Positions 9,797 to 63,556 of a stretch of 64,000 bases of DNA are shown piece by piece (position 1 is the first letter of the stretch; each line of letters starts with the position of its first letter). The position numbers and the translations under genes were made by a program. The stretch comes from a phage. The notes beneath the pieces were generated by a model. The model searched no databases, had not been told where the DNA came from, and saw only the letters and a program-made list of their open reading frames with translations. The stretch is taken from the sequence record PZ386976.1. One strand, given 5' to 3'.

Positions 9797-9797
9797 T

Positions 9798-18000: not shown

Positions 18001-18304
18001 TAAAGAGGGTGTGGCTCAGAAGAGCCACTTCTCAAACTACAATATTTCTATGACGGTGTTTATGAATGACCCGTTACTTGAAAAGTATGGTGAGACTCCA
18101 GATACACTTCTGGATAATGAACAAGTTTTAAAAGCAGTCCTGTACAAATATGGGATTGATATTGAGAAAGAGTATTCCTTTGAAATCTGCCAACACAGGA
18201 ACACTTTCGGTAAAGTTGTGATGGCTCCACTCTTTATGGGTGTAGAAAGGACTGACTATGGTTGGTTGTATCTAAAAAGAAACTTGGAGAAATACCGTGT
18301 CTAA
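17972..18304 (+). CDS. hypothetical protein
   Basis: 110 aa ORF, start uncertain. Confidence 0.3.
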   Translation: MVIMDSQNINKEGVAQKSHFSNYNISMTVFMNDPLLEKYGETPDTLLDNEQVLKAVLYKYGIDIEKEYSFEICQHRNTFGKVVMAPLFMGVERTDYGWLYLKRNLEKYRV

Positions 18305-18632
18305 AGCAAAAAAGCTATCTTATGATGACATTATATCAGGTGCTAAGTTAGGTGTTGACAGTATCGGACAAGACGTTAAGCACGGAGACACAGTTATGTA
18401 CTGTGATGACCGAAGAGGTAGAAGTGCAATCTTGTTTGGGAGAATTGTTTGCAAGATGCGAGGTAATTACGTTGTTGCAGACATGTATGTGAACGTTACA
18501 CAAAAGCTTGAAACAATTATGGATGCTAATACACCATCATGGTTCCTGAATTGTATGCACACTTCTTCAGTCACAAAGGTAAGTGATAAGTTTTACGATA
18601 TGTGGCAGAATGAGCAAATTTTCAAGATTTAA
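18297..18632 (+). CDS. hypothetical protein
   Basis: GTG start with RBS ggaga. Confidence 0.4.
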   Translation: MSKAKKLSYDDIISGAKLGVDSIGQDVKHGDTVMYCDDRRGRSAILFGRIVCKMRGNYVVADMYVNVTQKLETIMDANTPSWFLNCMHTSSVTKVSDKFYDMWQNEQIFKI

Positions 18633-18636
18633 ACTA

Positions 18637-18660
18637 GGGAGCCTCTTCGGAGGCTCTTTT
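18637..18660 (+). terminator. rho-independent terminator
   Basis: gagcctc-ttcg-gaggctc followed by TTTT. Confidence 0.5.
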
Positions 18661-18678
18661 CATCTGTAGGATTCAAAA

Positions 18679-20913
18679 ATGATTAAGACAATTAAAAAAT
18701 CAAACGGTACAGTAGTAAGCTTTGACCCAGAAAGACCGAATAAGTGGGCATCATGGGCAGATAAGCATGGTATTATCTGGTCAGAAGTCACTATGGAAGC
18801 CTTGAAACGTGTCTATGAGGGTTGCACTACAAAAGAGATGCACCAAGCCATGATTGATGTTTGTGTTGATAAACAAACTCAAGAGCACTCAGATATGGCT
18901 GGACGGCTACTTCTAGGGATTATCTACAAAGAAGCCTTTGGAGGCTTTACTAAGGTTCCTACGCTGGTTACCTTCGTTAAAAATATGGAGAGAGCAGGAC
19001 TTTGGGAGAAGATGGACTATTCTCAGGAAGAGCTTGAATACCTGCAAGGGTACATTGTGCACTCAAAAGATATCTCTTATGGTTATGCAGTCCTGAAACA
19101 GTTCAGAGACAAGTATGGTATCCGTGATATTAAAACGGGAAGACTTTTTGAGTCACCACAATTTATGTTTATGGGTATGGCTATGAAAGCCTTTGAGAAG
19201 CAACCAAAGCACCGTAGACTGCAAGATGTTATCAAGCTGTACACTTACCTATCTGACCTGAAGATTAACGCTCCTACACCTTATTTAAACGGTTTAAGAG
19301 CAACTAAATCAGGCTATGCGTCATGCTGTTTGATTAAGGCAAATGACACTGCCGAATCTCTCGGTATTGCTGCAAAGGTTGCTTATGACATGACTACAAA
19401 GCAAGCTGGTATCGGGATGCTGATGGAGACTCGCACTATTGGTGATGGTATCCGTCAAAACACGATTGAGCACATGGGTAAGCTGCCTTATTATAAGCTT
19501 GTACGTTCATCTGTAGAGGCAAACAAACAGAAGAGTCGTGGTGGTTCAGCTAATAACTTCTACACTGCTCTAGACCCGCAGATTGAAGATTTACTGCGTT
19601 TGAAGCACCCTACAACGGTTCCTTCTAAACGTATTAATGAGATGGACTACTCATTCGGCACAAACGATTATTTCTGGCAGTGTGTTCAGTATGATACGGA
19701 TTGGTTGCTATTCTCTTACAAAGATGCACCAAAACTCTATGACATGTTCTACACAGCATCTGCTGATGAGTTTGCTATGGCAGTTGGTCACGCAGTACAT
19801 TCAGGAGTTAAGCACAGACGAGTAAAGGCTCGTGAAATTGCCAAGCTGTTTATTCAACAGCGTTATGCTACAGGTCGTGTGTATCCATTCTTCACTAACA
19901 ATGCGAACACACATACACCATTTAAAGAACCATTGAAGATGTCAAATCTTTGTATGGAAATTGTGTTGCCAGTGTATGGTTTTGAGAAAGAGACAGACCT
20001 TTACAGAGACGATGCTGTGAAAGAGGATGGTGAGGTGGCTCTTTGCTTCCTAGCTAGTTTGGTTGCAGGGAGAATTTCAGAAGATGAATACGCTGACGTT
20101 GCTTATTATGCTCTTGCAATGGTTGACTCCGTTATTGACCTTATGGATTATCCGTATCCGTCGATGCGTAACCATGTTCAGAAGCGTCGTTCTGTTGGGA
20201 TTGGCCTTACAAATGTGGCTCATTACCTTGCGAAGAACTACGTGAACTACTCTTCACGAGCAGGTAAAACGAAACTTCATGAACTGGCAGAGATGCACTC
20301 TTACTATCTGCATGAAGCCTCTCTGAGACTTGCTAAAGAGCGTGGCGTTCCAGAATACATGAAGTTCACTAAGTATCCTGAAGGCTGGGTTCCTCCAAAG
20401 ACAGCTAACAAGAAGATTGATGAAAAGCATGATGCAAAACTACGATATGATTGGGATGACTTAGCACAACGTATCAAAGAAAATGGTGGAATCCGAAACT
20501 CTGTATTAGAAGCTTACATGCCTAATGAGAGTTCTTCACTGGCAACCAATACGACAAATGGCTTGTATCCAATTCGTGACTTTATTTTAACTAAAAAGTC
20601 TGCAACTGGTAACGTACTGTTTATTGTTCCAGATTATGAAGAGCTAAAGTATGTCTATGAAATTGCTTGGGATATTGACACCTTTGATATGATTGATTGT
20701 TATGCAATTGTTCAAAAGTTCACTGGTCAAGCTATCTCTTCAGACTTCTATGTTGACTATGCAAAGTCTAAGAAGGTATCATTGTCTCAAGCTCTGAAGT
20801 ACATGATTTATGCCAACTCAGTAGGTATGAAAACCATGTACTACCTTAACAGTCGCATTGGTGTAGGTAAATCTGCACTGCAAGATGCTTATTGCGAGGG
20901 TTGTGGTGTTTAG
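18679..20913 (+). CDS. nrdA: ribonucleotide reductase class I large subunit
   Basis: 744 aa; ATP-cone-like N-terminus and catalytic NLCMEIVLP region. Confidence 0.85.
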   Translation: MIKTIKKSNGTVVSFDPERPNKWASWADKHGIIWSEVTMEALKRVYEGCTTKEMHQAMIDVCVDKQTQEHSDMAGRLLLGIIYKEAFGGFTKVPTLVTFVKNMERAGLWEKMDYSQEELEYLQGYIVHSKDISYGYAVLKQFRDKYGIRDIKTGRLFESPQFMFMGMAMKAFEKQPKHRRLQDVIKLYTYLSDLKINAPTPYLNGLRATKSGYASCCLIKANDTAESLGIAAKVAYDMTTKQAGIGMLMETRTIGDGIRQNTIEHMGKLPYYKLVRSSVEANKQKSRGGSANNFYTALDPQIEDLLRLKHPTTVPSKRINEMDYSFGTNDYFWQCVQYDTDWLLFSYKDAPKLYDMFYTASADEFAMAVGHAVHSGVKHRRVKAREIAKLFIQQRYATGRVYPFFTNNANTHTPFKEPLKMSNLCMEIVLPVYGFEKETDLYRDDAVKEDGEVALCFLASLVAGRISEDEYADVAYYALAMVDSVIDLMDYPYPSMRNHVQKRRSVGIGLTNVAHYLAKNYVNYSSRAGKTKLHELAEMHSYYLHEASLRLAKERGVPEYMKFTKYPEGWVPPKTANKKIDEKHDAKLRYDWDDLAQRIKENGGIRNSVLEAYMPNESSSLATNTTNGLYPIRDFILTKKSATGNVLFIVPDYEELKYVYEIAWDIDTFDMIDCYAIVQKFTGQAISSDFYVDYAKSKKVSLSQALKYMIYANSVGMKTMYYLNSRIGVGKSALQDAYCEGCGV

Positions 20914-20968
20914 TTTTAACAACTATGAGGGTCGTAAAAGACCCTCTAAAAATAACTTTGGAGAGACC

Positions 20969-21226
20969 ATGAAAGATTTAATAGAAAAACATGAGCGGCC
21001 TATATACTTGCTCCACAAGCCTCGGAAAACGATGTACTATGTGAGTAGCACAGATATGATGATAAAACAAAATGATGACTCATGGGTTGCTGGTATCTCT
21101 TACATCTCTACAGCAGATGGTAAAATCTACGCAAGACCTTATGAGATGTTTAACAAAGAAAATTGGGAAGTTTTAGACAGAAAACAAGCCTTAGAAATGA
21201 TAAAGAAAGGAGAAATCACGCTATGA
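20969..21226 (+). CDS. hypothetical protein
   Basis: ORF 20885.. trimmed to Met with RBS ggagag. Confidence 0.4.
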   Translation: MKDLIEKHERPIYLLHKPRKTMYYVSSTDMMIKQNDDSWVAGISYISTADGKIYARPYEMFNKENWEVLDRKQALEMIKKGEITL

Positions 21227-22296
21227 TTAACCAGCACCCAATCTTTTTAGGTGGTGAGAGAAAAACTTTTGACTCACTTAATAAGCACTACCCAAAAATC
21301 TTTGAACTTTATAAACAACAAAAAGCACAAGACTGGTCAGAAGATGAGTTCCCTTTTGAACAATCACGTCTTGATTTTGAGAGTGTCCCAGCATCAATGT
21401 CAGGTGTAATGCTTGAGATTCTTAAGTGGCAATGGGAAGCAGATACTCAAGTTGCTAAGAGCTTGGCATTTGCCTTTGCACCATTTATCTCTGATGACAT
21501 TTATGCAACTGCAATTATGAAGCAGTCTGAGATTGAAAACCTACATGCTCTCACTTACTCAGAGATTGTAAGACAATGTATTAAAAACCCTGAAACAATC
21601 TTAGATGAGATTAACCAGAATGTTGCTGTGCAAGACCGATTAAAAACTGTGAATCGTGTTCTTGAAGAATTACTGGATGAAGGGATAAACTACCGACTGA
21701 GTTATGTCCGTGATTCACTTCTGGACAAAGACCCTTTACACTTCCATAAAGTGATTCTGAAAGGTCTATTTGCAGTGACTGCACTGGAAGGTATATCTTT
21801 TATGGCATCCTTTGCATGTACTTTTGCACTTGATGCTCAAGATAAATTTCAGGGTATTGCTCAAGCTGTGCAGAAGATTATGCTTGATGAAATCCTTCAC
21901 ACTAAAATTGATATTGAAGTTTTAAAAGAAACTTTAAGGGATGATGAGTGGCAGAAAGCTTTTCAACAAATTCTTCCAGAGATTAAAGTAATCTTAGATG
22001 AAGTAGTTGAAAGTGAAGAGAAATGGTCGTATTATATCTTCTCCGAAGGACGTGCTGTAGTTGGCTTAAATACAAAGCTTCTTCATGAGTGGGTTTATTA
22101 TAATGCTGCCCCACTGTATGATATGTTTGGCATTCCCAGAGATTTTGTAGCTCCTAAAGAACCACCTTTAAAGTACATGATTAAGAAGATGGAAATTGAT
22201 AAAGAGCAGAATGCTAATCAGGAGCAACAGAACGGTGCGTACCTATTGAATACTGTTGTAGATGATTTGAATAGTGGATTTTTAGAGGTTCCTTAA
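21223..22296 (+). CDS. nrdB: ribonucleotide reductase class I small subunit
   Basis: diiron-ligand-like E/H spacing; start at MINQHP with RBS aaaggag. Confidence 0.8.
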   Translation: MINQHPIFLGGERKTFDSLNKHYPKIFELYKQQKAQDWSEDEFPFEQSRLDFESVPASMSGVMLEILKWQWEADTQVAKSLAFAFAPFISDDIYATAIMKQSEIENLHALTYSEIVRQCIKNPETILDEINQNVAVQDRLKTVNRVLEELLDEGINYRLSYVRDSLLDKDPLHFHKVILKGLFAVTALEGISFMASFACTFALDAQDKFQGIAQAVQKIMLDEILHTKIDIEVLKETLRDDEWQKAFQQILPEIKVILDEVVESEEKWSYYIFSEGRAVVGLNTKLLHEWVYYNAAPLYDMFGIPRDFVAPKEPPLKYMIKKMEIDKEQNANQEQQNGAYLLNTVVDDLNSGFLEVP

Positions 22297-22538
22297 TGAC
22301 TTATGTAATTTACTCCAAAACTGGATGCCCTCAGTGTGAGACTGCAAAGAATTTTGCAAAAGCTCGTGGTATTGACCATGTTGTGAGAATGTTAGGGCAG
22401 GACTATGAGCTATCAGACTTGATGGATATTGCACAGATGCCAGTTCGTCAGATGCCATTCATCATGAAAACCGATGGACAAAACCTAAAACCTGTTGGGA
22501 CGCTACAGAATTTTATGGCAGAGGTGAATAATGCTTAA
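22296..22538 (+). CDS. glutaredoxin-like protein (NrdH-like)
   Basis: 80 aa with CPQC redox motif next to nrdAB. Confidence 0.6.
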   Translation: MTYVIYSKTGCPQCETAKNFAKARGIDHVVRMLGQDYELSDLMDIAQMPVRQMPFIMKTDGQNLKPVGTLQNFMAEVNNA

Positions 22539-22737
22539 ACGCATTTGGGAAGGTTTGGTTGTTGATGCACCAGCTATTGTGATTGGTATGCTTATTGTTA
22601 ACCTATTTACTGACTTTGAACAAGGTTCATTGTTTGGAGCCATGTTACTATGGGTTATCTTCGAAATATTAGAGATACAGTTAGGTATCACTGAAAAACT
22701 AAGAGAACTCTTTGCGAAGTTTTCTAAAAAGATTTAA
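22531..22737 (+). CDS. small membrane protein
   Basis: 68 aa, hydrophobic stretches, RBS gaggtg. Confidence 0.4.
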   Translation: MLKRIWEGLVVDAPAIVIGMLIVNLFTDFEQGSLFGAMLLWVIFEILEIQLGITEKLRELFAKFSKKI

Positions 22738-22745
22738 AATGAAAG

Positions 22746-22766
22746 GGTCTCTTCGGAGACCTTTTT
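22746..22766 (+). terminator. rho-independent terminator
   Basis: ggtctc-ttcg-gagacc followed by TTTTT. Confidence 0.5.
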
Positions 22767-22785
22767 AGCATGTAAAGGGGAAATA

Positions 22786-23982
22786 ATGAACAAAGTACAG
22801 ATTATTAAAAAGAATGGCTCACTCGAAGAACCTGATATCAAAAAAGTTTTAGCAGCAGTCACAAAGTCAGCTAATAGGGTTGGGTATAAAGAACTCCCAC
22901 CAGATGTTACTCAAGCTCTTGAGTCAGCATTTATGAGGATTCTGGTAAAGTCCACTAAGCAGAATAATTTGCTAATTTCTGTAAACGATATTCACAGTAT
23001 TGTTGAGGGTGCTTTGGCAGAAGTCAATCACGAAATTTATGAGTCTTACTCAACATACAGAAATTACCGTAAAGAAGTTGCTCAAAATTGGGATGAACTC
23101 TACCAGAAGACCAAAGATACACTCTTCTTAGGTGACAGAGAGAATGCTAACTTTGACAGCAGTTTAATTTCTACAAAAGGCTCAATTATTCGTGGTTACC
23201 TGACTAAAGAAATCTTTAAACAGTACCATTTAACACCAGAGGAACTTGAAGCCATTGAAAAAGGGTTTATCTATATCCATGATTTAAGAGACCTAATTTT
23301 TGGTGGTATCAACTGTTGCCTGTTTGACATTGGTAAAGTCCTGAAAGGTGGCTTTGAAATGTCTGGCATCGAATATTGTGAACCAAAGTCTGTGCTGTCG
23401 GCCTTACAGGTTATTGGTGACGTAGTTCTTTCAGCAACTGCACAGCAATTTGGTGGCTTTACTTTAGCAGAGATTGATAAGGTACTCGTACCGTATGCTA
23501 AGAAGTCTCTACGCTATCATGCTGAGAAAGCAGCATCTTATGGTATTCCTAAAGAACATTACCACAATTATATCATGGAGCAGCTACAGATTGAACTGAC
23601 TCAAGGTTTCCAGTCACTTGAAATGAAACTCAATACTGTGCCTTGTAGCCGTGGGGATTTTGCATTTACAACTTTGACATTCGGGTTACTTGATTCAGAT
23701 ATGTCTAATGAAGATAACCGACTGCAATACATGATTGCAAGTACTCTCCTAGATGTTCGTATGAATGGACAAGGTAAGAGCAAGAAGCCTGTTGTATTCC
23801 CTAAACTGGTTTATATTTATGACCAGAAGAGACACGATGAGAATATCTGTCAAGGACACCTGTACAGTAAAGCCATTGAGTGTTGCTCTAAAGCAATGTA
23901 TCCAGATTTCTTAAGTGTATCTGGTCATGGTGCTGTAGCAGAGGCTTTTGAGCGTTCTGGTAAGGTTATTTCACCGATGGGT
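22786..23982 (+). CDS. nrdD: anaerobic ribonucleotide reductase, 5' exon
   Basis: ORF ends ...VISPMG then stop; continues in frame at 24725 as CRAFLSPYL... (reconstitutes a PMGCR motif). Confidence 0.75.
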
Positions 23983-46390: not shown

Positions 46391-48153
46391 TCGACGCAAC
46401 GGGGCTATTTAGCCCCAGATACCTTTACAGCCCCTTAAATGGGGCTTTTTTACGTCTATCAAATTCCTTTCCAGAATCTTAAAACCCACCTAACAAGTCA
46501 GAACTTTACCAATGATTCGATAGAATCTATCTCATACCTTAAAAAGCAATAACTCTATAGTCTACTCTATAGCCTTTTATCAAATCAACTTAAATATAAG
46601 CCCATAACCCGAAAGGGAAGGGCAACCACTAAAACGCTCTATAAAGCTCTATAACAGCCTTATCAACCTAACTTAATGGATTGCATTAACCCACCTTAAA
46701 AAGCTCTTTACAGGGCTTTATAGAGACTTAAAAGAATCTTATAAGGTTATAAGCTTTATTATCTCGTTAGCTATCTTGTGAACTACTAAAAAGGGCTATG
46801 AGATAGGACTCTATGAGGGGTAATTCATTACCTGAATCACTATCAAATCCTATTGTTATTGTCTTAAAAGTATGTTATATGGGTTTGAAAGTAGCTTAAA
46901 AGTTACGTAAATGCTAGCCCCCTTAACATTTTCTTAACAATTTCTTAACAAACCCTACATAGCTATGCTTGTTAGCCCCTTGTTAAATTTCTGTTAAGAC
47001 CACGTAAAAGCCTTGTAAGAGTCTTTGGCATAGCCTTAAAAGCCCCTGTAAAGCCCTATAAAGAGCTATCCATACAGTTGAGGGGTAAATACTAGGAAGA
47101 GGCTTAAAAGAGCCTATAAAGAGTTATAGAGAGCTTTTAAAAGGTATGTTTAAGGAATCACTAAGAAAGGAAAGGGAACGATAAGAGAAGAGAGTTGTGT
47201 TTGTAAACAACCACTGTGACCATGTTAATAGCTTGTTAAAAAGATTAAACACTTGTTAGAAACTTGTTAATTGTCTAACTGGTATTGTTACCAATCCCTA
47301 CAAAATAACTCTTAAAAATTAACTTGTTAGCTCTTGTTAGTCATCTGTTAAGATTCTGTAAAGACTATTCAGCAACTGTTAAGAAACTGTTACAACCTTG
47401 TTAGTTCTGTTAAGAAACTGTTAAGACCTTTGAAGAGTTGTTAAGAAGATGTGAGAATTGTTAAGAGATTGTTAAGGATATTTTAAAATTCTGCAAAGGG
47501 GATGTTACAGGGATGTTAAGGGCTACCAAGCAGATATACATCTTCTACAGATATTTTTGAGTTCCTTCAAAGACCCTAAAAAAAATGACTTGACAGTCCT
47601 ATTTTATAAAAATTTTAAGATTCTGAATAATTACCTATACAGCCTTTTAAAAATACAGGTAATAACAGGCTTATAAGATACCTTGTTAGTACCGTGTTAG
47701 ACCTTGTGAGATAAGGTCTGTAAAGATATTCCTGTTAAGTTTGTTAAAACAGTTTATATAGAGGCTTAGTAATACCTAGTGAACACCTATAGAGAGTGTC
47801 ATAGCTGACATGATGGGTTACTGTTAAGTAACACAGATAACCTAGAGATTAAGAGGTGTATAGGGGCTTCTAAGAGTGTGTAGAGAGATGGTTAAGGTGA
47901 TTGTATAGGTTGTTAAGAAGGCTTGTTAGAAGAGTGTTTAGAAGGGCTATACAGGGGGGCTATTAAGACCACTAGATAGTTACTAAGATACTATATAGTA
48001 CTATATAACTATATATATAGAGAGTAAGCTTAAGAAGGTTATTAAGAAGGATAGATATTTTATTCACATATGATGGTGACCCAGAGGTTGGGACAACCGA
48101 TGAAATTTTATAAAAATTAAAAAGCCCCCAATTAAGGAGGCTCTTAAGATATT
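46391..48153. repeat. ~1.7 kb ORF-free repeat region with dense (C/T)TGTTA(A/G) and CTATAAAGAG motifs
   Basis: no ORF of 60 aa or more on either strand; more than 25 copies of tgttaag/tgttaga/tgttagc, densest 47200-47530, plus ctataaagag-type repeats 46600-47150. Confidence 0.6.
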
Positions 48154-55939: not shown

Positions 55940-56050
55940 TAAGTCTCCTTTGTAGAACAAGGCAGACCTACAGCTTTAAGTAAGATGGTACAGTAATCCA
56001 TACAACAAGTCAAGAACTATTGCAAGTTAAAAAAGTCGTTGACAAAGTAC

Positions 56051-56079
56051 TTGACAAGGTGTAGGCTTATAAATACTTA
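56051..56079 (+). promoter_or_regulatory. sigma70-like promoter within conserved divergent-promoter module
   Basis: ttgacaaagtacTTGACAaggtg...; second TTGACA, 17 nt, TACTTA; same module at 9177-9215. Confidence 0.35.
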
Positions 56080-56188
56080 GAAGATAACTTAAAAGGTTCC
56101 TCTAAAAAGGCTATTTAAACAGATATCTTTCTGGATATCTATCTTTTATCTTAAAAGCCTTTTAAGAGGTCTTATAAGAGGCATACCA

Positions 56189-56560
56189 ATGAAAAACAGA
56201 ACAAACAAAGGCCAGTTTAAAAAAGGCCAGTCTGGAAACCCATCTGGAAGACCAAAAGGCTCTCGTAACAAAAGCTCACTCGTAAAAGCTCAACTGACCA
56301 TTGATAATTCTGCTGAGTTTGCTGCAAAGCTGTTTGAGGCGATTGTTACAAGGGATGCTGCTAAGCTTGCAGAGTTCGGGTTAAACACAGACGATGTAAC
56401 CATCAAGAGTATGATTGAGGTCGGTAAAACTATCATGACTCACTCAGCAGGTGAGATGAAAGCAATTGCAGCAGACACTAAGAAGACTCCTGATAATGGT
56501 GGTCAAACCCAGACAGATAACAAACCAACGTTCTCTGCTGTAGCGACTCTCAAAAAATAA
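56189..56560 (+). CDS. hypothetical protein with N-terminal Gly/Pro-rich basic motif
   Basis: FKKGQSGNPSGRPKG motif. Confidence 0.45.
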   Translation: MKNRTNKGQFKKGQSGNPSGRPKGSRNKSSLVKAQLTIDNSAEFAAKLFEAIVTRDAAKLAEFGLNTDDVTIKSMIEVGKTIMTHSAGEMKAIAADTKKTPDNGGQTQTDNKPTFSAVATLKK

Positions 56561-58222: not shown

Positions 58223-58299
58223 CTCTGTTTAGCTCAGCTTGGTAGAGCGTTCCGTTTGGGGCGGTAAGGCCGGAGGTTCAAGTCCTCCAACAGAGACCA
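58223..58299 (+). tRNA. tRNA-Pro: tRNA-Pro (anticodon TGG)
   Basis: manual cloverleaf: acceptor ctctgtt/aacagag, anticodon loop ttTGGgg, T-arm ggagg-ttcaagt-cctcc, CCA encoded. Confidence 0.6.
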
Positions 58300-58316
58300 A
58301 ATTTAAAGGGGTTACT

Positions 58317-58673
58317 ATGAGATTTTTAAAAGAATGTCCAGTTCATGGTTTAACTGAACATAGCATTCATAAGAATGGTAACGCCGGTAATAGAGTAAAT
58401 TGTCTAAAATGTTGTGCATTAAGGACAAAACTTAGAGAGGATGCCAATAGGGAGAAAGCATACAAGTTTTATGGCGATAGTTGCAAAATTTGTGGCTATA
58501 ATAAATGTAAAAATGCTTTAGAATGGCATCACCTTAACCCAAACGAAAAAGAGAATACACCATCAAAAATTATGGGTGCATCTTGGGAAAAGGTTAAAAA
58601 AGAACTTGATAAATGTGTTTTGCTCTGTGCTAATTGCCACAGAGAGGTTCATAGTGGAATTACAACGGTTTAA
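58317..58673 (+). CDS. HNH homing endonuclease within tRNA cluster
   Basis: Cys-rich zinc-binding elements and HNH motif EWHHLNP...LLCANCHREVH; ORF 58239.. trimmed to MRFLKE because upstream part overlaps tRNA-Pro. Confidence 0.6.
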   Translation: MRFLKECPVHGLTEHSIHKNGNAGNRVNCLKCCALRTKLREDANREKAYKFYGDSCKICGYNKCKNALEWHHLNPNEKENTPSKIMGASWEKVKKELDKCVLLCANCHREVHSGITTV

Positions 58674-58674
58674 T

Positions 58675-58749
58675 GTCGTAGAAGGCAAATGGTTAGCCAC
58701 CTGACCTTCAATCAGTTGCTCGCAGGTTCGAATCCTGTCTACGACACCA
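58675..58749 (+). tRNA. tRNA, anticodon tentative (TTC, Glu?)
   Basis: acceptor gtcgtag/ctacgac, T-arm gcagg-ttcgaat-cctgt, CCA encoded; anticodon loop ccTTCaa has atypical C33. Confidence 0.45.
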
Positions 58750-58753
58750 GTTT

Positions 58754-58832
58754 TGACAGAAGACCAATTACAGCAAACTTAATCTTATTCATCTGAAGGT
58801 AAATCGGACAAAGAAGAGATTTGGTCTGGTCA
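58754..58832 (+). ncRNA. conserved bulged-helix module 1 (outer stem tgac/gtca, 5' AGA bulge, inner stem agaccaa/ttggtct, 3' G bulge)
   Basis: one of four copies with covarying outer stems; encloses AT-rich loop. Confidence 0.35.
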
Positions 58833-58840
58833 TTAAGAAT

Positions 58841-58917
58841 TGCGGGTATAGAGAAAGGGCGTCTCACATGTCTCATTAGCATGGTATCGGCAGGTTCGAC
58901 TCCTGCACCCGCCTCCA
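58841..58917 (+). tRNA. tRNA-Met/Ile2 (anticodon CAT), initiator-like unpaired 1:72
   Basis: acceptor (t)gcgggt/acccgc(c), anticodon loop ctCATta, T-arm gcagg-ttcgact-cctgc, CCA encoded. Confidence 0.5.
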
Positions 58918-58920
58918 ATT

Positions 58921-58986
58921 TTGCAGAAGACCGTATTCAGCAACAAACTACTTTTTGCGGATAAAAGAAAAAACACGGTCTGGCAA
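58921..58986 (+). ncRNA. conserved bulged-helix module 2 (outer ttgc/gcaa, inner agaccgt/acggtct)
   Basis: same architecture as module 1 with compensatory base changes. Confidence 0.35.
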
Positions 58987-58994
58987 TGTATTAA

Positions 58995-59071
58995 GGTTAG
59001 GAAGCACATAAGGTATGTGCGGTCGCCTGTTAAGCGAATGGCACAGGGTTCGAATCCCTGACTAACCGCCA
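58995..59071 (+). tRNA. tRNA-Asn: tRNA-Asn (anticodon GTT)
   Basis: acceptor ggttagg/actaacc, D-arm gcac-ataaggtat-gtgc, anticodon arm gtcgc-ctGTTaa-gcgaa, T-arm caggg-ttcgaat-ccctg, CCA. Confidence 0.7.
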
Positions 59072-59140
59072 AATTTAGGAGAGAAGCGATTGCTCACCGA
59101 TTTGTAAGGTGCAAGTCCTTAGCCTGAATAGAAATTAAAT

Positions 59141-59228
59141 GTGTCGTTATCCCGTAGATGGTAGCGGTGGGGACTGTAAATCCCTTGTCATTGAGACTCG
59201 GTAGGTTCGACTCCTACACGGCACACCA
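59141..59228 (+). tRNA. tRNA-Tyr: tRNA-Tyr (anticodon GTA), long variable arm
   Basis: acceptor gtgtcgt/acggcac, anticodon arm gggga-ctGTAaa-tccct, long variable arm, T-arm gtagg-ttcgact-cctac, CCA. Confidence 0.65.
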
Positions 59229-59233
59229 ATAAA

Positions 59234-59311
59234 GGTTATGTAGTTTAATTTGGTTAAAATACTCCCCTGTCACGGGAGATGATGAGGGTTCAAATCCCTT
59301 CGTAACCGCCA
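59234..59311 (+). tRNA. tRNA-Asp: tRNA-Asp (anticodon GTC)
   Basis: acceptor ggttatg/cgtaacc, anticodon arm ctccc-ctGTCac-gggag, T-arm gaggg-ttcaaat-ccctt, CCA. Confidence 0.7.
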
Positions 59312-59369
59312 ATTTTGAGAGGGCTATTTAGCCCCTCCCTTAAAGGGTTCTTACGAGTATCCTTTAAAG

Positions 59370-59451
59370 GAGCAGAAGACCAAATACAGCAAGAACGTAT
59401 GAAAATTTCAAGCCAATTTAATTTTGAAAAATTTAAAACTTGGTCTGGCTC
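59370..59451 (+). ncRNA. conserved bulged-helix module 3 (outer gagc/gctc, inner agaccaa/ttggtct)
   Basis: same architecture, compensatory outer-stem change. Confidence 0.35.
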
Positions 59452-59458
59452 AACAAAT

Positions 59459-59595
59459 TTACAGAAGACCGTTTACAGCAAAACTTAAACAATCTATTTC
59501 TCGGTAAAGAAAAGGCGAAGGTTCGATTCCTTCACTCGGCAGATGTCGAGTTGGTGTAATGGTAGCACTTAAGATGATAAACAACGGTCTGGTAA
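59459..59595 (+). ncRNA. conserved bulged-helix module 4 enclosing a circularly permuted tRNA-like domain; candidate Y-RNA-like RNA
   Basis: outer ttac/gtaa, inner agaccgt/acggtct; enclosed 59517-59568 has T-arm gaagg-ttcgatt-ccttc, 7-bp hairpin actcggc-agat-gtcgagt (acceptor-like) and D-arm-like gtg-taatggtag-cac in permuted order. Confidence 0.35.
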
Positions 59596-59736
59596 TTATC
59601 TTTGTAGATAAGTTATTAAGCTTACCTGTGAGTATGCGACCACAAAGGGTGAAAGGGTAAATTCTAGATTTAAACCCAAAAAGGCACATCGCTACAGACC
59701 TTAAGCAAGTCTGGGTAGCTTATCTACAAAGATAAT
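59595..59736 (+). ncRNA. long hairpin with perfect 18-bp stem enclosing ~106 nt
   Basis: attatctttgtagataag (59595-59612) is the exact reverse complement of cttatctacaaagataat (59719-59736); no ORF. Confidence 0.3.
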
Positions 59737-59741
59737 TTAAT

Positions 59742-59817
59742 GGAAGTGTAGCAGAATGGTGATGCGGCAGACTTTTAATCTGACAGGCGATGGGTTCGAA
59801 TCCCTCCACTTCTACCA
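59742..59817 (+). tRNA. tRNA-Lys: tRNA-Lys (anticodon TTT)
   Basis: acceptor ggaagtg/cacttct, D-arm gca-gaatggtga-tgc, anticodon loop ctTTTaa, T-loop ttcgaat, CCA. Confidence 0.6.
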
Positions 59818-59821
59818 AAAT

Positions 59822-59898
59822 GGTTCAGTCGCAGATAAGGTAATTCAAGGGTCTCATAAGACCTATGAATGTGGGTTCGATTCCCATCTGAACCTCCA
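59822..59898 (+). tRNA. tRNA-Met/Ile2 (anticodon CAT), tentative
   Basis: acceptor ggttcag/ctgaacc perfect, anticodon loop ctCATaa, T-arm gtggg-ttcgatt-cccat, CCA; D-arm irregular. Confidence 0.45.
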
Positions 59899-59900
59899 AT

Positions 59901-59975
59901 TGTGGGTTAGCATAAATGGTAATGCAAACGGCTGATAACCGTTAGAAGAGGGTTCGATACCCTCACCTACAACCA
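59901..59975 (+). tRNA. tRNA-Ile: tRNA-Ile (anticodon GAT)
   Basis: acceptor tgtgggt/acctaca, D-arm gcat-aaatggta-atgc, anticodon arm aacgg-ctGATaa-ccgtt, T-arm gaggg-ttcgata-ccctc, CCA. Confidence 0.7.
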
Positions 59976-59990
59976 ATTTCAATAAAGTTG

Positions 59991-60019
59991 TTGACATTGA
60001 GATGTGACTACTTTATAGT
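59991..60019 (+). promoter_or_regulatory. sigma70-like promoter inside tRNA cluster
   Basis: TTGACA, 17 nt, TATAGT; followed by ~200 nt ORF-free region before next tRNA. Confidence 0.5.
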
Positions 60020-60222
60020 AACCTTAGTTTTCGTTGCGTAGCGTCTATTTTGCAAATTTAAAATAAATGCAAACGACAATGTTTTTCTGGCAGTAGCTTG
60101 ATAGGCTAAACACCAGTGAGGTCTTCCAATCCCTCATCAAAGAATTTGGCGTACTAGCCCACGGTATGATTAATAAGGTGGGCATCTTTAAGTGCTTTCT
60201 GAGAGAGTCTTTAAAGATTAAT

Positions 60223-60299
60223 GCACCCTTAGTTCAATTGGATAGAGCAACGGTCTTCTAAATCGTTAGTTACAGGTTCGAATCCTGTAGGGTGTACCA
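60223..60299 (+). tRNA. tRNA-Arg: tRNA-Arg (anticodon TCT)
   Basis: acceptor gcaccct/agggtgt, D-arm gttc-aattggata-gagc, anticodon arm acggt-ctTCTaa-atcgt, T-arm acagg-ttcgaat-cctgt, CCA. Confidence 0.7.
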
Positions 60300-60441
60300 A
60301 ATAGTTAGCAGATTGCTTAGACGACCTTATCGGGTCTCCGTGTAAGGAGGTGGTCTGTATCTCATGTTTTCCAGAACATGTAAATAATCTGAGAAGGGGC
60401 TTTACAGTGTTGCGAAAATACGGTAAGCTTCGAATTATAGT

Positions 60442-60524
60442 ATGGGACGATGTTAAGACTCTAAGGCATGAGCAACGGCCTCCAAAACCGTTTCAAAGGG
60501 GTTCAACTCCTCCGTCCCATGCCA
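60442..60524 (+). tRNA. tRNA-like gene with oversized D region (possible anticodon CCA, Trp?)
   Basis: acceptor atgggac/gtcccat perfect, T-arm agggg-ttcaact-cctcc, CCA; candidate anticodon loop ctCCAaa; D region ~7 nt too long. Confidence 0.35.
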
Positions 60525-60537
60525 AAGTCTTATTAGG

Positions 60538-60625
60538 GGTAGGTAGCGGCTAATGGCAGCCAAACAGTCTTGAAAACTGTTGCCACTGTAGAGATACGGT
60601 GAGGGTTCGACTCCTTTACTTACCG
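60538..60625 (+). tRNA. tRNA-Ser: tRNA-Ser (anticodon TGA), long variable arm
   Basis: acceptor ggtaggt/acttacc, anticodon arm acagt-ctTGAaa-actgt perfect, long variable arm, T-loop ttcgact. Confidence 0.6.
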
Positions 60626-60882
60626 CCTAATAAGATTTAAAGCCAAGCTTCATTCGGATGTTGCTTTGGTATCCCTCGTGTATTGTCGTACACACTGATA
60701 AAGCACCTAGTAGGTGTCACGGAGAAGAGATAATATCAAGCTCTCCAAAGGTTCTAGTCACCGGATTAAACAAGGCTATGCAAAGACCTGTTTAGGTCTT
60801 TTTAGAGGGCTTCTAAGGTTATTACAGCTTGTTGTGGAACCTTGTTGCTTAGGTTCTTAGAAGTTCTCTAAAAAGATTTAAT

Positions 60883-60960
60883 GGGAGATTGACGGTAATT
60901 GGTAAACCTACCATCCTTAGAAGTTGGTGTTTGAGGGTTCGAATCCCTTGTCTCCTACCA
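60883..60960 (+). tRNA. tRNA, anticodon tentative (TAG, Leu?) with short variable arm
   Basis: acceptor gggagat/gtctcct, anticodon arm ccatc-ctTAGaa-gttgg, T-arm gaggg-ttcgaat-ccctt, discriminator A, CCA. Confidence 0.45.
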
Positions 60961-60967
60961 AATTAAT

Positions 60968-61043
60968 GCAGGTGTAGCAAAATGGTTATGCGGCTGACTC
61001 TTAATCAGTAAGACGATGGGTTCAATTCCCTCCACCTGTACCA
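60968..61043 (+). tRNA. tRNA-Lys: tRNA-Lys (anticodon CTT)
   Basis: paralog of Lys-TTT gene; anticodon arm gctga-ctCTTaa-tcagt, T-loop ttcaatt, CCA. Confidence 0.55.
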
Positions 61044-61049
61044 AATATT

Positions 61050-61125
61050 GGGGTCATAGTTTATATGGTTAAAATTCGAGTTTTGCAAACTTGGGAACTG
61101 AGTTCAATTCTCAGTGACTCCACCA
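61050..61125 (+). tRNA. tRNA-Ala: tRNA-Ala (anticodon TGC)
   Basis: acceptor ggggtca/tgactcc, anticodon arm cgagt-ttTGCaa-acttg, T-arm ctgag-ttcaatt-ctcag, CCA. Confidence 0.6.
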
Positions 61126-61131
61126 ATTAGT

Positions 61132-61206
61132 GCATCCATAGTTTAAACGGGAAAATTACAGTCTTCCAAACTGAGGTTGAGGGTTCGATTCCCTCTGGAT
61201 GCTCCA
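61132..61206 (+). tRNA. tRNA-Gly: tRNA-Gly (anticodon TCC)
   Basis: acceptor gcatcca/tggatgc perfect, anticodon loop ctTCCaa, T-arm gaggg-ttcgatt-ccctc, CCA. Confidence 0.6.
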
Positions 61207-61212
61207 AACAAT

Positions 61213-61289
61213 GCTGCTTTCGTATAATTGGCTATTACACATCCCTTGTAAGGATGGAAATGCAGGTTCGAGTCCTGTGAGCAGCACCA
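61213..61289 (+). tRNA. tRNA-Thr: tRNA-Thr (anticodon TGT)
   Basis: acceptor gctgctt/gagcagc, anticodon arm catcc-ctTGTaa-ggatg perfect, T-arm gcagg-ttcgagt-cctgt, CCA. Confidence 0.7.
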
Positions 61290-61380
61290 ATTCAGAGGTC
61301 AAGTGAAAGACCGCTGGTGTCAACTGAAGACCGTAACAAATTCCACGGAGTTGAGTTAGCGGCACAACTTCAGACCTCTT
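61290..61380 (+). ncRNA. structured element with terminal inverted repeat and a variant of the conserved gaagaccgt box
   Basis: cagaggtc pairs with gacctct ~70 nt downstream; contains ctgaagaccgtaacaaa. Confidence 0.25.
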
Positions 61381-61384
61381 TCAT

Positions 61385-61459
61385 ACTCGCTTAGTTTATA
61401 TGGTAAAACATCACCCTTACAAGATGAAGAAGAAGGTTCAAGTCCTTTAGTGAGTACCA
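61385..61459 (+). tRNA. tRNA-Val: tRNA-Val (anticodon TAC), tentative
   Basis: acceptor actcgct/agtgagt, anticodon arm tcacc-ctTACaa-gatga (one mismatch), T-arm gaagg-ttcaagt-ccttt, CCA. Confidence 0.5.
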
Positions 61460-61460
61460 T

Positions 61461-61538
61461 GTTCCAGTATCCCAATTGGCAGAGGATGCAAGCTCAAACC
61501 TTGTACTAGTGACGGTTCGAATCCGTCTTGGAACACCA
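61461..61538 (+). tRNA. tRNA-Leu: tRNA-Leu (anticodon CAA) with short variable arm
   Basis: acceptor gttccag/ttggaac, D-arm tcc-caattggcaga-gga, anticodon arm gcaag-ctCAAac-cttgt, T-arm gacgg-ttcgaat-ccgtc, discriminator A, CCA. Confidence 0.5.
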
Positions 61539-61543
61539 ATTTT

Positions 61544-61619
61544 GCAGGATTAGTTCAAATGGATAGAGCAACAGTCTACGAAGCTGTTAATAGGGGTTCG
61601 AATCCCTTATCCTGCACCA
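61544..61619 (+). tRNA. tRNA-Arg: tRNA-Arg (anticodon ACG)
   Basis: acceptor gcaggat/atcctgc perfect, D-arm gttc-aaatggata-gagc, anticodon arm acagt-ctACGaa-gctgt, T-loop ttcgaat, CCA. Confidence 0.65.
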
Positions 61620-61638
61620 ATTTAAAGAGGCTATTTAA

Positions 61639-62196
61639 ATGAGATATTTGAAGTATGCTTCATGGATTTTCCTAGCTTTGTTAGACCCATTGGCAGCAAC
61701 CTTAGCAGTTATCTTAGCACCTTTTGTAGTTCCATTCTATAGTGAGAAGAAAGGACATCTACCTTTTGGATTCAGATGGATGGAGACATATGACAACCCT
61801 ATTGATGGTGATGAAGGTCACATTAAACGATGGGCTAAGATTAGAAAGATTGGTAAGCTTGGTGTCTATTTGCAGAGAGTTGGATGGCTCTGGAGAAACA
61901 AAGCTTATAACTTCTCTTACCATGTGTTAGGAAGAGATATAAAAGATGTTACTAAGTGGAAAGGTAATATCAACGTAAGCTCTGACCCTGAAGATAATCA
62001 GACAGGTTATCTCCTAATGTGGAACAGTAATGCTTGGGGATTATTCGCTTTTATCCCATCAATTAAAATCTTTGGTAAACAATTCTACTGGAGAATTTAT
62101 GTTGGGTGGAAACTAAAAAGTGTTGTCCCAGAAGAAAGAGCATTCTCAAGGGAAAGAGTTATGTTGGCATTCTTTATTCATCCACTGAGAAAGTAA
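61639..62196 (+). CDS. membrane protein embedded in tRNA cluster
   Basis: 185 aa with N-terminal hydrophobic helix. Confidence 0.45.
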   Translation: MRYLKYASWIFLALLDPLAATLAVILAPFVVPFYSEKKGHLPFGFRWMETYDNPIDGDEGHIKRWAKIRKIGKLGVYLQRVGWLWRNKAYNFSYHVLGRDIKDVTKWKGNINVSSDPEDNQTGYLLMWNSNAWGLFAFIPSIKIFGKQFYWRIYVGWKLKSVVPEERAFSRERVMLAFFIHPLRK

Positions 62197-62204
62197 AGAT
62201 TTAA

Positions 62205-62280
62205 AGGGGATTAGTTTACAAGGTTGAAACCTCGGTCTTTGAAATCGAAGAAGTTGGTTCAATTCCAACATCCCCCGCCA
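62205..62280 (+). tRNA. tRNA-Gln: tRNA-Gln (anticodon TTG)
   Basis: acceptor (a)ggggat/atccccc with unpaired 1:72, D-arm gttt-acaaggttg-aaac, anticodon arm tcggt-ctTTGaa-atcga, T-arm gttgg-ttcaatt-ccaac, CCA. Confidence 0.55.
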
Positions 62281-62282
62281 AT

Positions 62283-62361
62283 GCTCCATTACTCCAATTG
62301 GCAGAGAGGCCAGACTTAAAATCTGTGTTATGTATCGGTTCGAATCCGATATGGAGTACCA
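62283..62361 (+). tRNA. tRNA-Leu: tRNA-Leu (anticodon TAA) with short variable arm
   Basis: acceptor gctccat/atggagt, D-arm ctc-caattggcaga-gag, anticodon arm ccaga-ctTAAaa-tctgt, T-arm atcgg-ttcgaat-ccgat, discriminator A, CCA. Confidence 0.5.
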
Positions 62362-62366
62362 AATTT

Positions 62367-62442
62367 AGCGGTATAGCATAACTGGCAATGCAGCAGTCTC
62401 TGAAGCTGTCCTATTAAGGTTCAAATCCTTATGCCGCTGCCA
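62367..62442 (+). tRNA. tRNA-Gln (anticodon CTG), tentative
   Basis: acceptor agcggta/tgccgct, anticodon arm gcagt-ctCTGaa-gctgt, T-arm taagg-ttcaaat-cctta, CCA. Confidence 0.5.
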
Positions 62443-62473
62443 CTTCTAAGGATTCTTACGAGAGTCCTTAAAT

Positions 62474-62549
62474 GTGGCCTTATCATAAATGGTAATGACC
62501 CATGCTGTGAACATGGTCTATACGGGTTCAAATCCCGTAGGTCACCCCA
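62474..62549 (+). tRNA. tRNA-His: tRNA-His (anticodon GTG)
   Basis: acceptor gtggcct/aggtcac, anticodon arm ccatg-ctGTGaa-catgg perfect, T-arm acggg-ttcaaat-cccgt, CCA. Confidence 0.65.
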
Positions 62550-62554
62550 ATTTA

Positions 62555-62631
62555 TAGTCCAAGTAGCTTATATGGTTAAAGCGCGTGTCTGAAAAACATG
62601 AGAAGAGGGTTCAAATCCCACTGGACTACCA
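62555..62631 (+). tRNA. tRNA-Phe: tRNA-Phe (anticodon GAA), 3' end ambiguous
   Basis: acceptor tagtcca/tggacta, anticodon arm cgtgt-ctGAAaa-acatg, T-arm gaggg-ttcaaat-cccac. Confidence 0.5.
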
Positions 62632-62648
62632 ATTTCAAAGGTGCTTAA

Positions 62649-63382
62649 TGAAAGAGATGACAGAACAAGGTAAGGAGATTTTTAATCTCTTAAAAACCGG
62701 TAGAGGGTTTTCTAATCCCCTTATTACTGGTGCAGCAGTTCTAGGTGGAACCGTAGCTGCCTCTACATCACTTGTAAGCTCTATTAGTTCTGTAACAGAC
62801 CCTACAATGAAGGATAAACTCATTGCTGCTGGACTTACAACAGTTCTGCTTAATAGCTTTACAACGAGTCTGACAAGCACTACAGCAACTACTAAGACAT
62901 TGACAGATTATGGTCAAAAATCTATTGATGAGTTTTCCTCACGTATGCAGGTAGCAAAAGGCTACTCCAATGTTATGGGTGCAGCAGGAGAGCAAGTTGG
63001 TTGTACACCATTTAGTGGTATTATGGGTGTTGCTACAGAGTATGGTCAAAAAGCTATGGATACAATTAACAGCACACTAGATGATGTTAATGCCGTGTTA
63101 AGTGACTTACAGGATGCTATTGATAAAGGTCTTGATACTATTTCTGATTTAGCTAACCAAGCCGTTAGCAAGATTAATGAAGGTATCTCGAAGATTACAG
63201 CTTATGCAGATGAAGTTGTGCAGATGATTGAAGAAGAAGCTGCCCTTGTTGCAGATTACCTTAAAACGAATATTAATGGGTTCTTAGCAGGTGTCTTACC
63301 AGACTGGTTTGATGATGCTTGTAAAACTGGTGTGATTGACACTATTGCAACACCAGAAATGAAGAACGCATTACAGAAATAA
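62649..63382 (+). CDS. hypothetical protein, Ser/Thr-rich N-terminal half and helical C-terminal half
   Basis: ORF 62585.. trimmed to MKEMTEQ because upstream part overlaps tRNA-Phe. Confidence 0.45.
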
Positions 63383-63383
63383 T

Positions 63384-63476
63384 GGAAGATTAACCCTAAA
63401 AGGTAAGGGAGCAGTTTGCTAAACTGCCAGTAGCTGAGAAATCGGTGTACCAGTTCAAGTCTGGTATCTTCCTCCA
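63384..63476 (+). tRNA. tRNA-Ser: tRNA-Ser (anticodon GCT), long variable arm
   Basis: acceptor ggaagat/atcttcc perfect, anticodon arm gcagt-ttGCTaa-actgc perfect, long variable arm, T-arm accag-ttcaagt-ctggt, CCA. Confidence 0.7.
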
Positions 63477-63480
63477 ATTT

Positions 63481-63556
63481 GAATCCGTGACAGAAATGGA
63501 TATGTGCCTGTCTGCAAAACAGGTTTATAAGGGTTCGAGTCCCTTCGGATTCTCCA
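63481..63556 (+). tRNA. tRNA-Cys: tRNA-Cys (anticodon GCA)
   Basis: acceptor gaatccg/cggattc perfect, anticodon arm cctgt-ctGCAaa-acagg perfect, T-arm aaggg-ttcgagt-ccctt, CCA. Confidence 0.7.

Follow-up and report, generated by a model that had tools for sequence, protein, structure and literature searches.

A Phased TGTTA Array in the Predicted Terminal Repeat of a Felix O1-Like Phage: A Candidate Packaging Scaffold

Introduction

What is the role of 1.7 kb of phage DNA that contains no open reading frame (ORF) of at least 60 amino acids on either strand? The question is raised by positions 46391–48153 of the phage record PZ386976.1, analyzed here as a single stretch of 64,000 nucleotides that is referred to as the window. 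A first-pass annotation made from the sequence alone had noted more than 25 copies of (C/T)TGTTA(A/G) and several CTATAAAGAG-type repeats in this region and had suggested an iteron array, a binding platform for a phage or host factor, or a long non-coding transcript. A fact missing from that annotation is that, on the evidence of related genomes, the physical ends of the genome meet in this region, collapsed into one junction that includes the direct terminal repeat. The overall reading favored here, with a probability of roughly 0.7, is that the region represents the terminal region of a Felixounavirus genome, in the form found in a replicating concatemer or a circularized assembly, and that the TGTTA array would serve as a scaffold for packaging and cutting.

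The gene-free stretch would then be the genome terminus in a phage group that is widely used in therapy and diagnostics and whose deposited genomes often start at an arbitrary point, carry the repeat in collapsed form, and have spurious tiny genes annotated within it. Outside T7, little is understood of how exact terminal repeats are recognized and duplicated, and the group lacks a known small terminase subunit. A conserved phased array that is framed by mirrored cut-site words offers a concrete, testable cis element.

The Genome Ends

A total of 257 phage records match positions 46391–48153 at 80–93% identity, nearly all of them from the Ounavirinae, and the rII region of the window is 95–97% identical to that of felixounaviruses. 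The window, which carries 25 transfer RNA (tRNA) genes, is assigned by this similarity to the genome of a Felix O1-like myovirus (Felixounavirus).

Several related records start or stop inside the region. Exact repeats are present at both record ends in four relatives that were deposited as linear genomes, NBSal004 (694 bp), ZX4221 (591 bp), Ro111lw (613 bp), and SeKF_63 (613 bp), and terminal repeats at both ends were also identified in I14.1 (581 bp) and ECP2307 (592 bp). The repeat-bearing linear records are independent and come from four laboratories. In all four linear-deposited relatives the repeat begins with GCCCCCTTAACATTTTCTTAACA (GCCCCCTTAACATTTTCTTAACAATTTCTTAACAA) and ends with TGTTAAGGGCTACC, after which the unique DNA AAGCAGATATACA follows, and the letters of the window at 46917 and 47527 are identical to these boundary sequences. 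The length of the repeat across the relatives is 569–694 bp. Part of the 694 bp of NBSal004 is a 49-bp tandem duplication within its terminal repeat (364–492).

By homology, the physical left end is placed at ~46917 and the physical right end at ~47527, each within about ±3 nucleotides. Two properties of a T7-type repeat are found, the same sequence at both genome ends (again by homology) and fixed, non-permuted ends at conserved sequences. The boundary words are common to Felixounavirus, and the right boundary is also present in Mooglevirus and Suspvirus. Both boundaries carry the word TAGCCC(CC)TTAACA in mutually inverted orientation: the right end read on the other strand is GGTAGCCCTTAACA, which mirrors the left boundary TA/GCCCCCTTAACA (with the slash at the boundary).

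Published measurements agree with these positions. PhageTerm gave terminal repeats of 613 bp for Ro111lw (PMC6454146) and 581 bp for Pr103Blw (PMC8303462), Bal31 digestion combined with run-off sequencing gave 608 bp for UAB_Phi87 (PMC4837284), and the large terminase of the genus is reported to cluster with terminal-repeat phages (PMC4837284). The boundary words of UAB_Phi87 are 614 bp apart, and the comparison with the published 608 bp indicates that the cut positions are good to ~3 nucleotides. The agreement between the repeat boundaries of the relatives and the published lengths identifies positions 46391–48153, by homology, as the collapsed junction of the physical genome ends with the direct terminal repeat included, and the repeat of the window can on the same grounds be equated with the published Felixounavirus terminal repeats.

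Convergent gene blocks flank the region, and a terminator scan shows that each block closes with an intrinsic terminator (46429–46446 on the plus strand and 48145–48120 on the minus strand). In the linear arrangement of a relative, a leftward operon with the genes of an endolysin and a tail protein comes first after the left end, followed by the tRNA block, the large terminase gene (TerL), and the structural genes; genes for replication and nucleotide metabolism and the rII genes are located on the right arm. The position of TerL is just beyond the window. Sequence searches of PHROGs, Pfam, and the PDB assigned no function to the flanking genes, and a single-sequence AlphaFold model of the 176-amino-acid neighbor at the right end (predicted local distance difference test score 52.5) was too poor for a structure search.

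Terminal repeats had been described for the genus before, and what is found here is in essence the genome ends. As far as their accessible text goes, the papers on the Felixounavirus repeat (PMC4837284, PMC6454146, and PMC8303462) give its existence and length only. The phased array inside the repeat, the mirrored words at its borders, the conservation across the subfamily, the quantitative match to ArcA sites, and the conserved spacers were not found described in the literature that could be searched.

The TGTTA Array

The motif YTGTTAR occurs 25 times in the region (22 on the plus and 3 on the minus strand) and 56 times in the other 62.2 kb of the window, corresponding to 14.2 and 0.9 copies per kb, respectively. 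This ~16-fold excess is not at the level of base composition and upholds the strong enrichment noted in the first-pass annotation, although its count of more than 25 copies was slightly generous. The TGTTA core is found 37 times (30 on the plus and 7 on the minus strand) compared with an expectation of 2.35 per strand derived from the rest of the window. Its density is 9–16 per 500 bp in the region and at most 5 elsewhere, without a second cluster in the 64-kb window, and a single cluster fits a cis site that is used once per genome.

Neighboring cores on the same strand are spaced by exactly 11 bp in 11 out of 29 cases, and the remaining spacings cluster at 20–22 and 31–33 bp, which agrees with the tandem arrangement at roughly 10–12 bp described earlier. 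Tandem Repeats Finder reports periods of 11 and 31 bp, and all but one of the 14 TGTTA-N6-TGTTA dimers of the window (13/14) are located within the region. The unit spacing, mostly 11 bp, corresponds to about one helical turn.

The terminal repeat carries 24 of the 37 TGTTA cores, in the order three inverted, three direct, five, eleven, and two direct at the right cut (table 1). The two trios at the left end (46922–46951 and 46969–46997) form an imperfect 3+3 palindrome with its center at ~46960 (DNA fold −7.7 kcal/mol, z = −2.7; RNA fold z = −3.5). The main array (47325–47475) shows a 31-bp super-period and a spacing pattern that resembles the repeat of Erwinia phage M7, and 20% of the positions within its cores are variable compared with 50% within its spacers.

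The second class of repeats is less well defined. The CTATAAAGAG-type motif is a loose word family and not a sharp repeat: only two exact copies of TATAAAGAG are present (47057 and 47115), whereas the degenerate word CT[AG]TA[AT]AG reaches 13 copies (16-fold enriched) and CTTAAAAG 5 copies (8-fold enriched). Most copies of these words fall within the two repeats of ~41 nucleotides at 47027–47141.

Table 1. Features of the predicted genome-end junction, in window coordinates
Feature	Position	Strand	Description
Right-end spacer	46391–46916		526 bp, including the right-arm terminator
Right-arm operon terminator region	46398–46452	+	Hairpin GGGGCTATTTAGCCCC, then AGCCCCTTAAATGGGGCT and a T-run; terminator scan
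Right-end unique spacer, non-coding	46453–46916	.	Conserved block 46531–46770 (9 genomes, 3 genera)
Direct terminal repeat (predicted)	46917–47527	+	611 bp, single collapsed copy; boundaries from relatives
Inverted TGTTAAG trio	46922–46951	−	11-bp period, starts 6 nucleotides inside the left end; identical in all Felixounavirus relatives examined
Direct TGTTA(G/A) trio	46969–46997	+	11-bp period
Repeat of ~41 nucleotides, two copies 68 bp apart	47027–47141	+	Words CTTAAAAG/CTGTAAAG/CTATAAAGAG; conservation 0.81–0.91
Five TGTTA units	47223–47290	+	Spacings 11, 20, 11, 21 bp; ArcA-type boxes of 17.7 and 17.2 bits
Main array, eleven TGTTA and one TGTAA	47325–47475	+	Spacings 10, 11, 31, 11, 11, 9, 11, 20, 20, 11 bp
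Right boundary element GGGATGTTACAGGGATGTTAAGGGCTACC	47499–47527	+	Ends the repeat, two TGTTA units; kept in Felixounavirus, Mooglevirus, and Suspvirus
Left-end spacer	47528–48153		626 bp, including the left-arm terminator
Left-end unique spacer	47528–48119	.	Begins AAGCAGATATACA; conservation 0.83–0.99 except 47791–47850
Left-arm operon terminator	48120–48145	−	10-bp stem and T-run; annotated terminator in wV8 and Maleficent

Coding Potential and Conservation

The conservation analysis is based on nine aligned genomes that represent the genera Felixounavirus, Mooglevirus, and Suspvirus. With a minimum of 30 amino acids on both strands, the longest ORFs that lie wholly inside the region encode 42, 39, 37, and 31 amino acids, so that the reported absence of ORFs of at least 60 amino acids holds, and no ORF of at least 40 amino acids is common to the nine aligned genomes. 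Variable sites are distributed evenly over the three codon phases in the region (204/205/205), compared with a strong third-position bias in the flanking genes (43/39/73 and 134/54/96). The curated annotations of wV8, FO1a, Maleficent, and SUSP1 contain the same 1.6–1.7-kb gene gap. A gene that spans the region in related phages was looked for, and neither a shared ORF nor codon periodicity emerged; the tiny coding sequences (CDSs) annotated there in some records are also mutually inconsistent, and a protein-coding gene is rejected. Inconsistent "hypothetical proteins" of 25–49 amino acids are annotated inside the terminal repeat in several records. Sigma-70 promoters occur at chance level in the region, and neither a known RNA family nor a promoter combined with a covarying fold was identified; the column-shuffle control of RNAalifold collapsed to near-zero energies and its z-scores were discarded.

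Overall, 35% of the alignment columns are variable in the region compared with 62% and 52% in the neighboring small genes, and the repeat is 82–89% identical to the closest relatives compared with 95–97% for the core genes. The region therefore evolves faster than the core genes and slower than the adjacent accessory genes. Variation is found in patches at 46471–46530, 46771–46860, 47191–47220, 47281–47310, and 47791–47850. Inside the repeat, 16% of the TGTTA positions are variable compared with 50% of the spacer positions (Fisher p = 2e-12), a contrast that represents the putative phylogenetic footprint of 5-bp contacts made once per helical turn.

The arrangement extends to a genus in which most of the sequence has diverged. 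Only ~84 nucleotides of Erwinia phage M7 (Kolesnikvirus) can be aligned with the repeat of the window. The M7 repeat (444 bp) contains 20 TGTTA cores; most of its inverted units lie nearer the left end and its direct units nearer the right end, and its run of spacings (11, 11, 9, 20, 20, 20, 11) is similar to that of the array in the window. Just past its right cut M7 carries AGATATACA, as found after the right cut of the window, and its 1.44-kb terminal non-coding region contains 30 TGTTA cores compared with 8 in 3.1 kb of flanking genes. The array architecture thus recurs in four genera of the subfamily. The idea of a binding platform for a phage or host factor gains strength from this recurrence, from the helical phasing of the cores, and from their conservation over the spacers.

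Proposed Role in Packaging

The best reading of the array is a phased protein-binding scaffold that would mark the concatemer junction for cutting and packaging. We infer this function from four established parts: the location at the termini, the fixed and mirrored cut-site words, the phased conserved units, and the end of transcription on both sides. In the proposed mechanism, the TGTTA units would be binding sites for a protein that polymerizes along one face of the DNA, and the resulting nucleoprotein complex would mark the concatemer junction and would position and orient two sequence-specific terminase cuts. TGTTA sites abut both cuts in mirrored orientation. After the cuts, the repeat would be duplicated during packaging, as in T7-type phages. 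Candidates for the binder are a packaging or end-binding protein of the phage that has escaped recognition and the host regulator ArcA in its phosphorylated form (ArcA-P).

Phages with short exact repeats of the T7 type would share with this scheme a non-permuted linear genome, a repeat of a few hundred bp with one copy per concatemer junction, site-specific cuts at both repeat borders, duplication on packaging (for the general mechanism, see PMC10438801), and dense arrays of short words in or near the repeat. T7 differs in its CCTAAAG-like words and their irregular spacing, whereas TGTTA(A/G) with a strict 11-bp period is found here, in a myovirus with an unrelated terminase lineage. Furthermore, both operons run toward the ends and stop before them in the present case, transcription across the junction is not evident, and no small terminase subunit (TerS) is known. 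The T7 repeats are reportedly flanked by arrays of reiterated heptamers, SRL and SRR, said to have been described by Dunn and Studier in 1983. Other packaging sites also combine short binding sites with a cleavage position: cosB of phage lambda consists of R sites and IHF, the pac site of P1 contains hexamers on both sides of the cut, and the binding proteins are known. Multiple short sites flank the cleavage position in these systems as in the region described here, and a host architectural protein can participate, but lambda and P1 use cohesive ends or headful packaging and far fewer sites, compared with the exact terminal repeats of the felixounaviruses.

Several points weigh against a packaging scaffold. 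The Felix O1 paper recognizes no small terminase subunit in the group, none is recognizable there by sequence, and neither Pfam nor PHROGs assigns a function to the small ORF that precedes TerL in a relative, which leaves the proposed packaging binder hypothetical. The termini of the window phage are placed by homology only. Phased short repeats also typify replication origins, and unrelated viral contigs carry similar iteron-like arrays. Finally, conserved non-coding DNA runs for ~500–600 bp past the repeat on both sides, which exceeds the need of a minimal packaging signal. The conserved DNA beyond the repeat, with a hairpin at 46600–46623, AGATAT words, and a ACTATATA/(TA)n tract, makes further functions likely.

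Host ArcA as a Candidate Binder

One specific candidate for the binder is ArcA-P, an oxygen-sensing enterobacterial response regulator of the OmpR/PhoB family that might bind the TGTTA units cooperatively; this identification is tentative and less likely than not. The proposal bears on which protein binds and does not conflict with a packaging scaffold. ArcA-P could serve end processing or replication as an architectural factor, or it could be titrated from host promoters by hundreds of phage genomes, and either variant would link phage development to the respiratory state of the host.

The published ArcA site consists of two to five direct-repeat elements of 10 bp with the core TGTTA and a center-to-center distance of 11 bp (also 22 bp), and extra consensus elements raise the affinity for ArcA and make binding oxygen-independent (PMC4173790, PMC3798270). 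The phage unit matches this site in its core, its direct orientation, and its 11-bp spacing, and direct repeats of at least two TGTTA cores at 11 bp form 13 dimers in the region compared with one elsewhere in the window. An 18-bp ArcA matrix was rebuilt from 115 of the 128 boxes identified by chromatin immunoprecipitation sequencing (ChIP-seq) in the published Table S3, with 15 bits as the genome-scan cutoff of that paper. The region contains eight boxes of at least 15 bits (500 dinucleotide shuffles: mean 0.15, maximum 2) and six of at least 17 bits (shuffles: mean 0.02, maximum 1), compared with two and zero, respectively, in the other 62 kb of the window. The two best boxes (22.7 and 22.5 bits) overlap within the inverted trio at the left end (46922–46951) and score higher than every natural box in the table (maximum 21.5 bits). 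Among nine relatives from four genera, including M7, each genome has 7–9 boxes of at least 15 bits in its terminal non-coding DNA and none in the flanks. Consensus dimers of PhoP, CpxR, PhoB, and OmpR are absent from the region, which adds to the case for ArcA. An A at position +1 is present in 54% of the window units and 53% of the ArcA boxes, for which an A/T-rich flank is expected (ATGTTAAAAA). To our knowledge, ArcA is present in all known hosts of the subfamily.

However, the units also carry a conserved extension, TGTTA-A-G-A: G at +2 is found in 43% of the window units and 47% of the M7 units compared with 8% of the ArcA boxes, and G at +1 in 24% of the phage units compared with 3% of the boxes. 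The G-containing extension suggests a different or additional specificity and argues against ArcA alone. An 11-bp phasing is common among DNA-binding proteins, and unrelated viral contigs contain arrays phased at 11–12 bp with other flanks. Furthermore, Felix O1-like phages are grown in ordinary aerated broth, a condition in which ArcA-P is presumably low. The ArcA-P operators of E. coli (PMC3798270, PMC4173790) resemble the phage array in the direct TGTTA cores at 11 or ~22 bp, and the phage scores equal or exceed those of natural sites, but the operators consist of two to five elements that overlap promoters and have A/T-rich flanks, whereas the phage has 24 units with a TGTTA-AGA flank in 611 bp at a promoterless genome end. 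Random-barcode transposon sequencing (RB-TnSeq) in Salmonella places arcB, together with himA/himD, crp, rpoN, and lon, among the disruptions that confer resistance to Felix O1, but the arcB phenotype was also observed for a T5-like phage, the authors credit RpoS, and arcA is unmentioned (PMC8744999).

That the Ounavirinae terminal repeat is a super-array of ~24 predicted ArcA-P elements, stronger than any natural chromosomal site, is doubtful. If this is true, ArcA would be an architectural host factor at phage ends, or the copies of the phage genome would form a sponge that de-represses respiratory metabolism, and the oxygen and respiratory state of the gut host would then be linked to packaging, replication, or host metabolism. 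Binding of ArcA to the units would make this, as far as we know, a lytic phage that employs a global redox regulator of its host at the genome ends, and would affect how such phages perform in the anaerobic gut relative to aerated laboratory culture.

Two phage-encoded candidates were rejected. An ArcA-like phage protein was searched for by tblastn with an approximate ArcA query sequence (best E = 0.85), and the one regulator annotated in a relative is a Cro/C1-type helix-turn-helix protein, for which binding to direct repeats would not be expected. Scans of IMG/VR for TGTTA arrays returned, among the matches listed, mainly single chance matches, known relatives, and unrelated iteron-like arrays, and did not discriminate between a host and a phage binder. 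The left terminal repeat of phage T5 (NC_005859) contains two isolated ArcA-type boxes, one of 23.6 bits (TTGTTAAATATTTGTTAA, 5316–5333) between genes, close to the pre-early promoters, and one of 21.0 bits (6578–6595) inside the CDS T5.011; apart from these two boxes, no terminal TGTTA array was identified in T5.

Alternative Explanations

In a replication origin, the TGTTA units would be iterons for a phage initiator or DnaA-like host factors beside an AT-rich unwinding element, and the linear genome or concatemer would begin to replicate within or close to the terminal repeat. We consider this unlikely. Many phased short direct repeats are indeed present and AT-rich DNA adjoins the arrays (25–26% GC in the tract 47550–47700 of the left-end spacer, and a (TA)n tract at 47990–48020), but the repeat unit is a 5–8-bp core with an 11-bp period. 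The iterons of lambda ori, P1, and plasmid oriR are 17–22 bp long and are present in three to seven copies beside or inside the initiator gene. The region shares with these origins the phased direct repeats next to AT-rich DNA and none of their long iterons in low copy number at an initiator gene; no initiator gene is adjacent, and none of the flanking genes has an assigned function. The window has just three consensus DnaA boxes, and the one at 48060 is lost by a 1-nucleotide deletion in Mooglevirus and Suspvirus, and no IHF consensus was found in the region, so that the combination of an unwinding element, DnaA and IHF sites, and an initiator gene expected of an iteron origin is not seen even though AT-rich tracts are present. 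Similar iteron-like arrays in unrelated viral contigs and a reported binding of ArcA-P to oriC (as cited in PMC3798270) speak for an origin in general terms. Skew analysis had been proposed in the first-pass annotation as a check for an origin signature; the switch in GC skew falls at the change in gene orientation and follows the strand bias of the motif, and is therefore not independent evidence. The origin suggested at the outset is thus left without specific support, and the exact framing of the arrays by two cut sites points to end processing.

Far less probable is a role of the ends in DNA entry or end protection, in which they would act during ejection or shortly afterwards, or bind a protein that protects them from RecBCD or joins genomes end to end by recombination to form concatemers. 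A contribution of terminal repeats to concatemer formation has been proposed (PMC10438801), and T5 carries an annotated "injection stop signal" (9140–10149) beside the inner repeat boundary at 10219 (NC_005859). Like the region described here, the T5 element is largely ORF-free, is located at the inner border of a terminal repeat, and is dense in several families of direct and inverted repeats. However, there is no sequence similarity between the two, the T5 repeats are different words, the T5 terminal repeat is 10.2 kb long and bears genes, and its function is tied to a two-step DNA transfer, which Felix O1-like myoviruses are not known to use; a protein that binds the ends was not identified.

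Transcription of the region into a long non-coding RNA or into small RNAs is most improbable. Conservation is high without a coding signal, and a few folds are locally stable (47660–47759, z ~ −3.4; the GAAA-loop hairpin at 46600–46623). However, both flanking operons have their terminators at the borders, promoter-like sites are at the level of shuffled sequences (9 compared with 9.5 expected), no Rfam match has E < 0.1 (best E = 0.18), and the strongest folds belong to the terminators and to the inverted repeat next to the left cut. The conservation of 5-bp cores in helical phase is a signature of DNA binding and not of pairing, and the transcript proposed at first is accordingly not borne out.

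Spacers and Other Features

The spacers on both sides of the predicted repeat contain further conserved elements. The right-arm terminator region (46398–46452) has the strongest folding z-scores in the region, is conserved in relatives, and is an annotated terminator in Citrobacter phage Maleficent. In the right-end spacer, the hairpin GCCCATAACCCGAAAGGGAAGGGC with its GAAA loop (46600–46623) is identical in eight out of nine aligned genomes from the three genera, and EP1 differs by one base. The left-end spacer contains further TGTTA units at 47684, 47695, 47733, 47742, 47822, 47911, and 47924, followed at 47990–48020 by three copies of ACTATATA and a (TA)n tract of polymorphic length, and at 48053–48068 by TAGATATTTTATTCACA, which holds the DnaA box at 48060.

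The block of 25 tRNA genes is located at 58223–63556 on the plus strand, downstream of a gene for a Ro60-like RNA-binding protein that is known in relatives. Positions 15724–23513 of SeKF_63, which are homologous to the right arm of the window, encode both aerobic (NrdAB) and anaerobic (NrdDG) ribonucleotide reductases in addition to nicotinamide adenine dinucleotide (NAD) salvage genes, and the phage group is therefore equipped for oxic and anoxic hosts. A Felix O1-like copy of the region with 85.6% identity is present in the GenBank record GU169904, "Staphylococcus phage SA1," which suggests a chimeric or mislabeled record.

Two divergent strand-switch regions of the window (9150–9373 and 55950–56190) have a tandem −35-like element in common, TTGACA-N6-CTTGACAAGGTGT (9178–9205 and 56040–56066), and are probably early promoter regions of the phage. 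Each of the TTGACA-N6-CTTGACAAGGTGT elements is followed by a leader that is rich in CTTAAAAG words.

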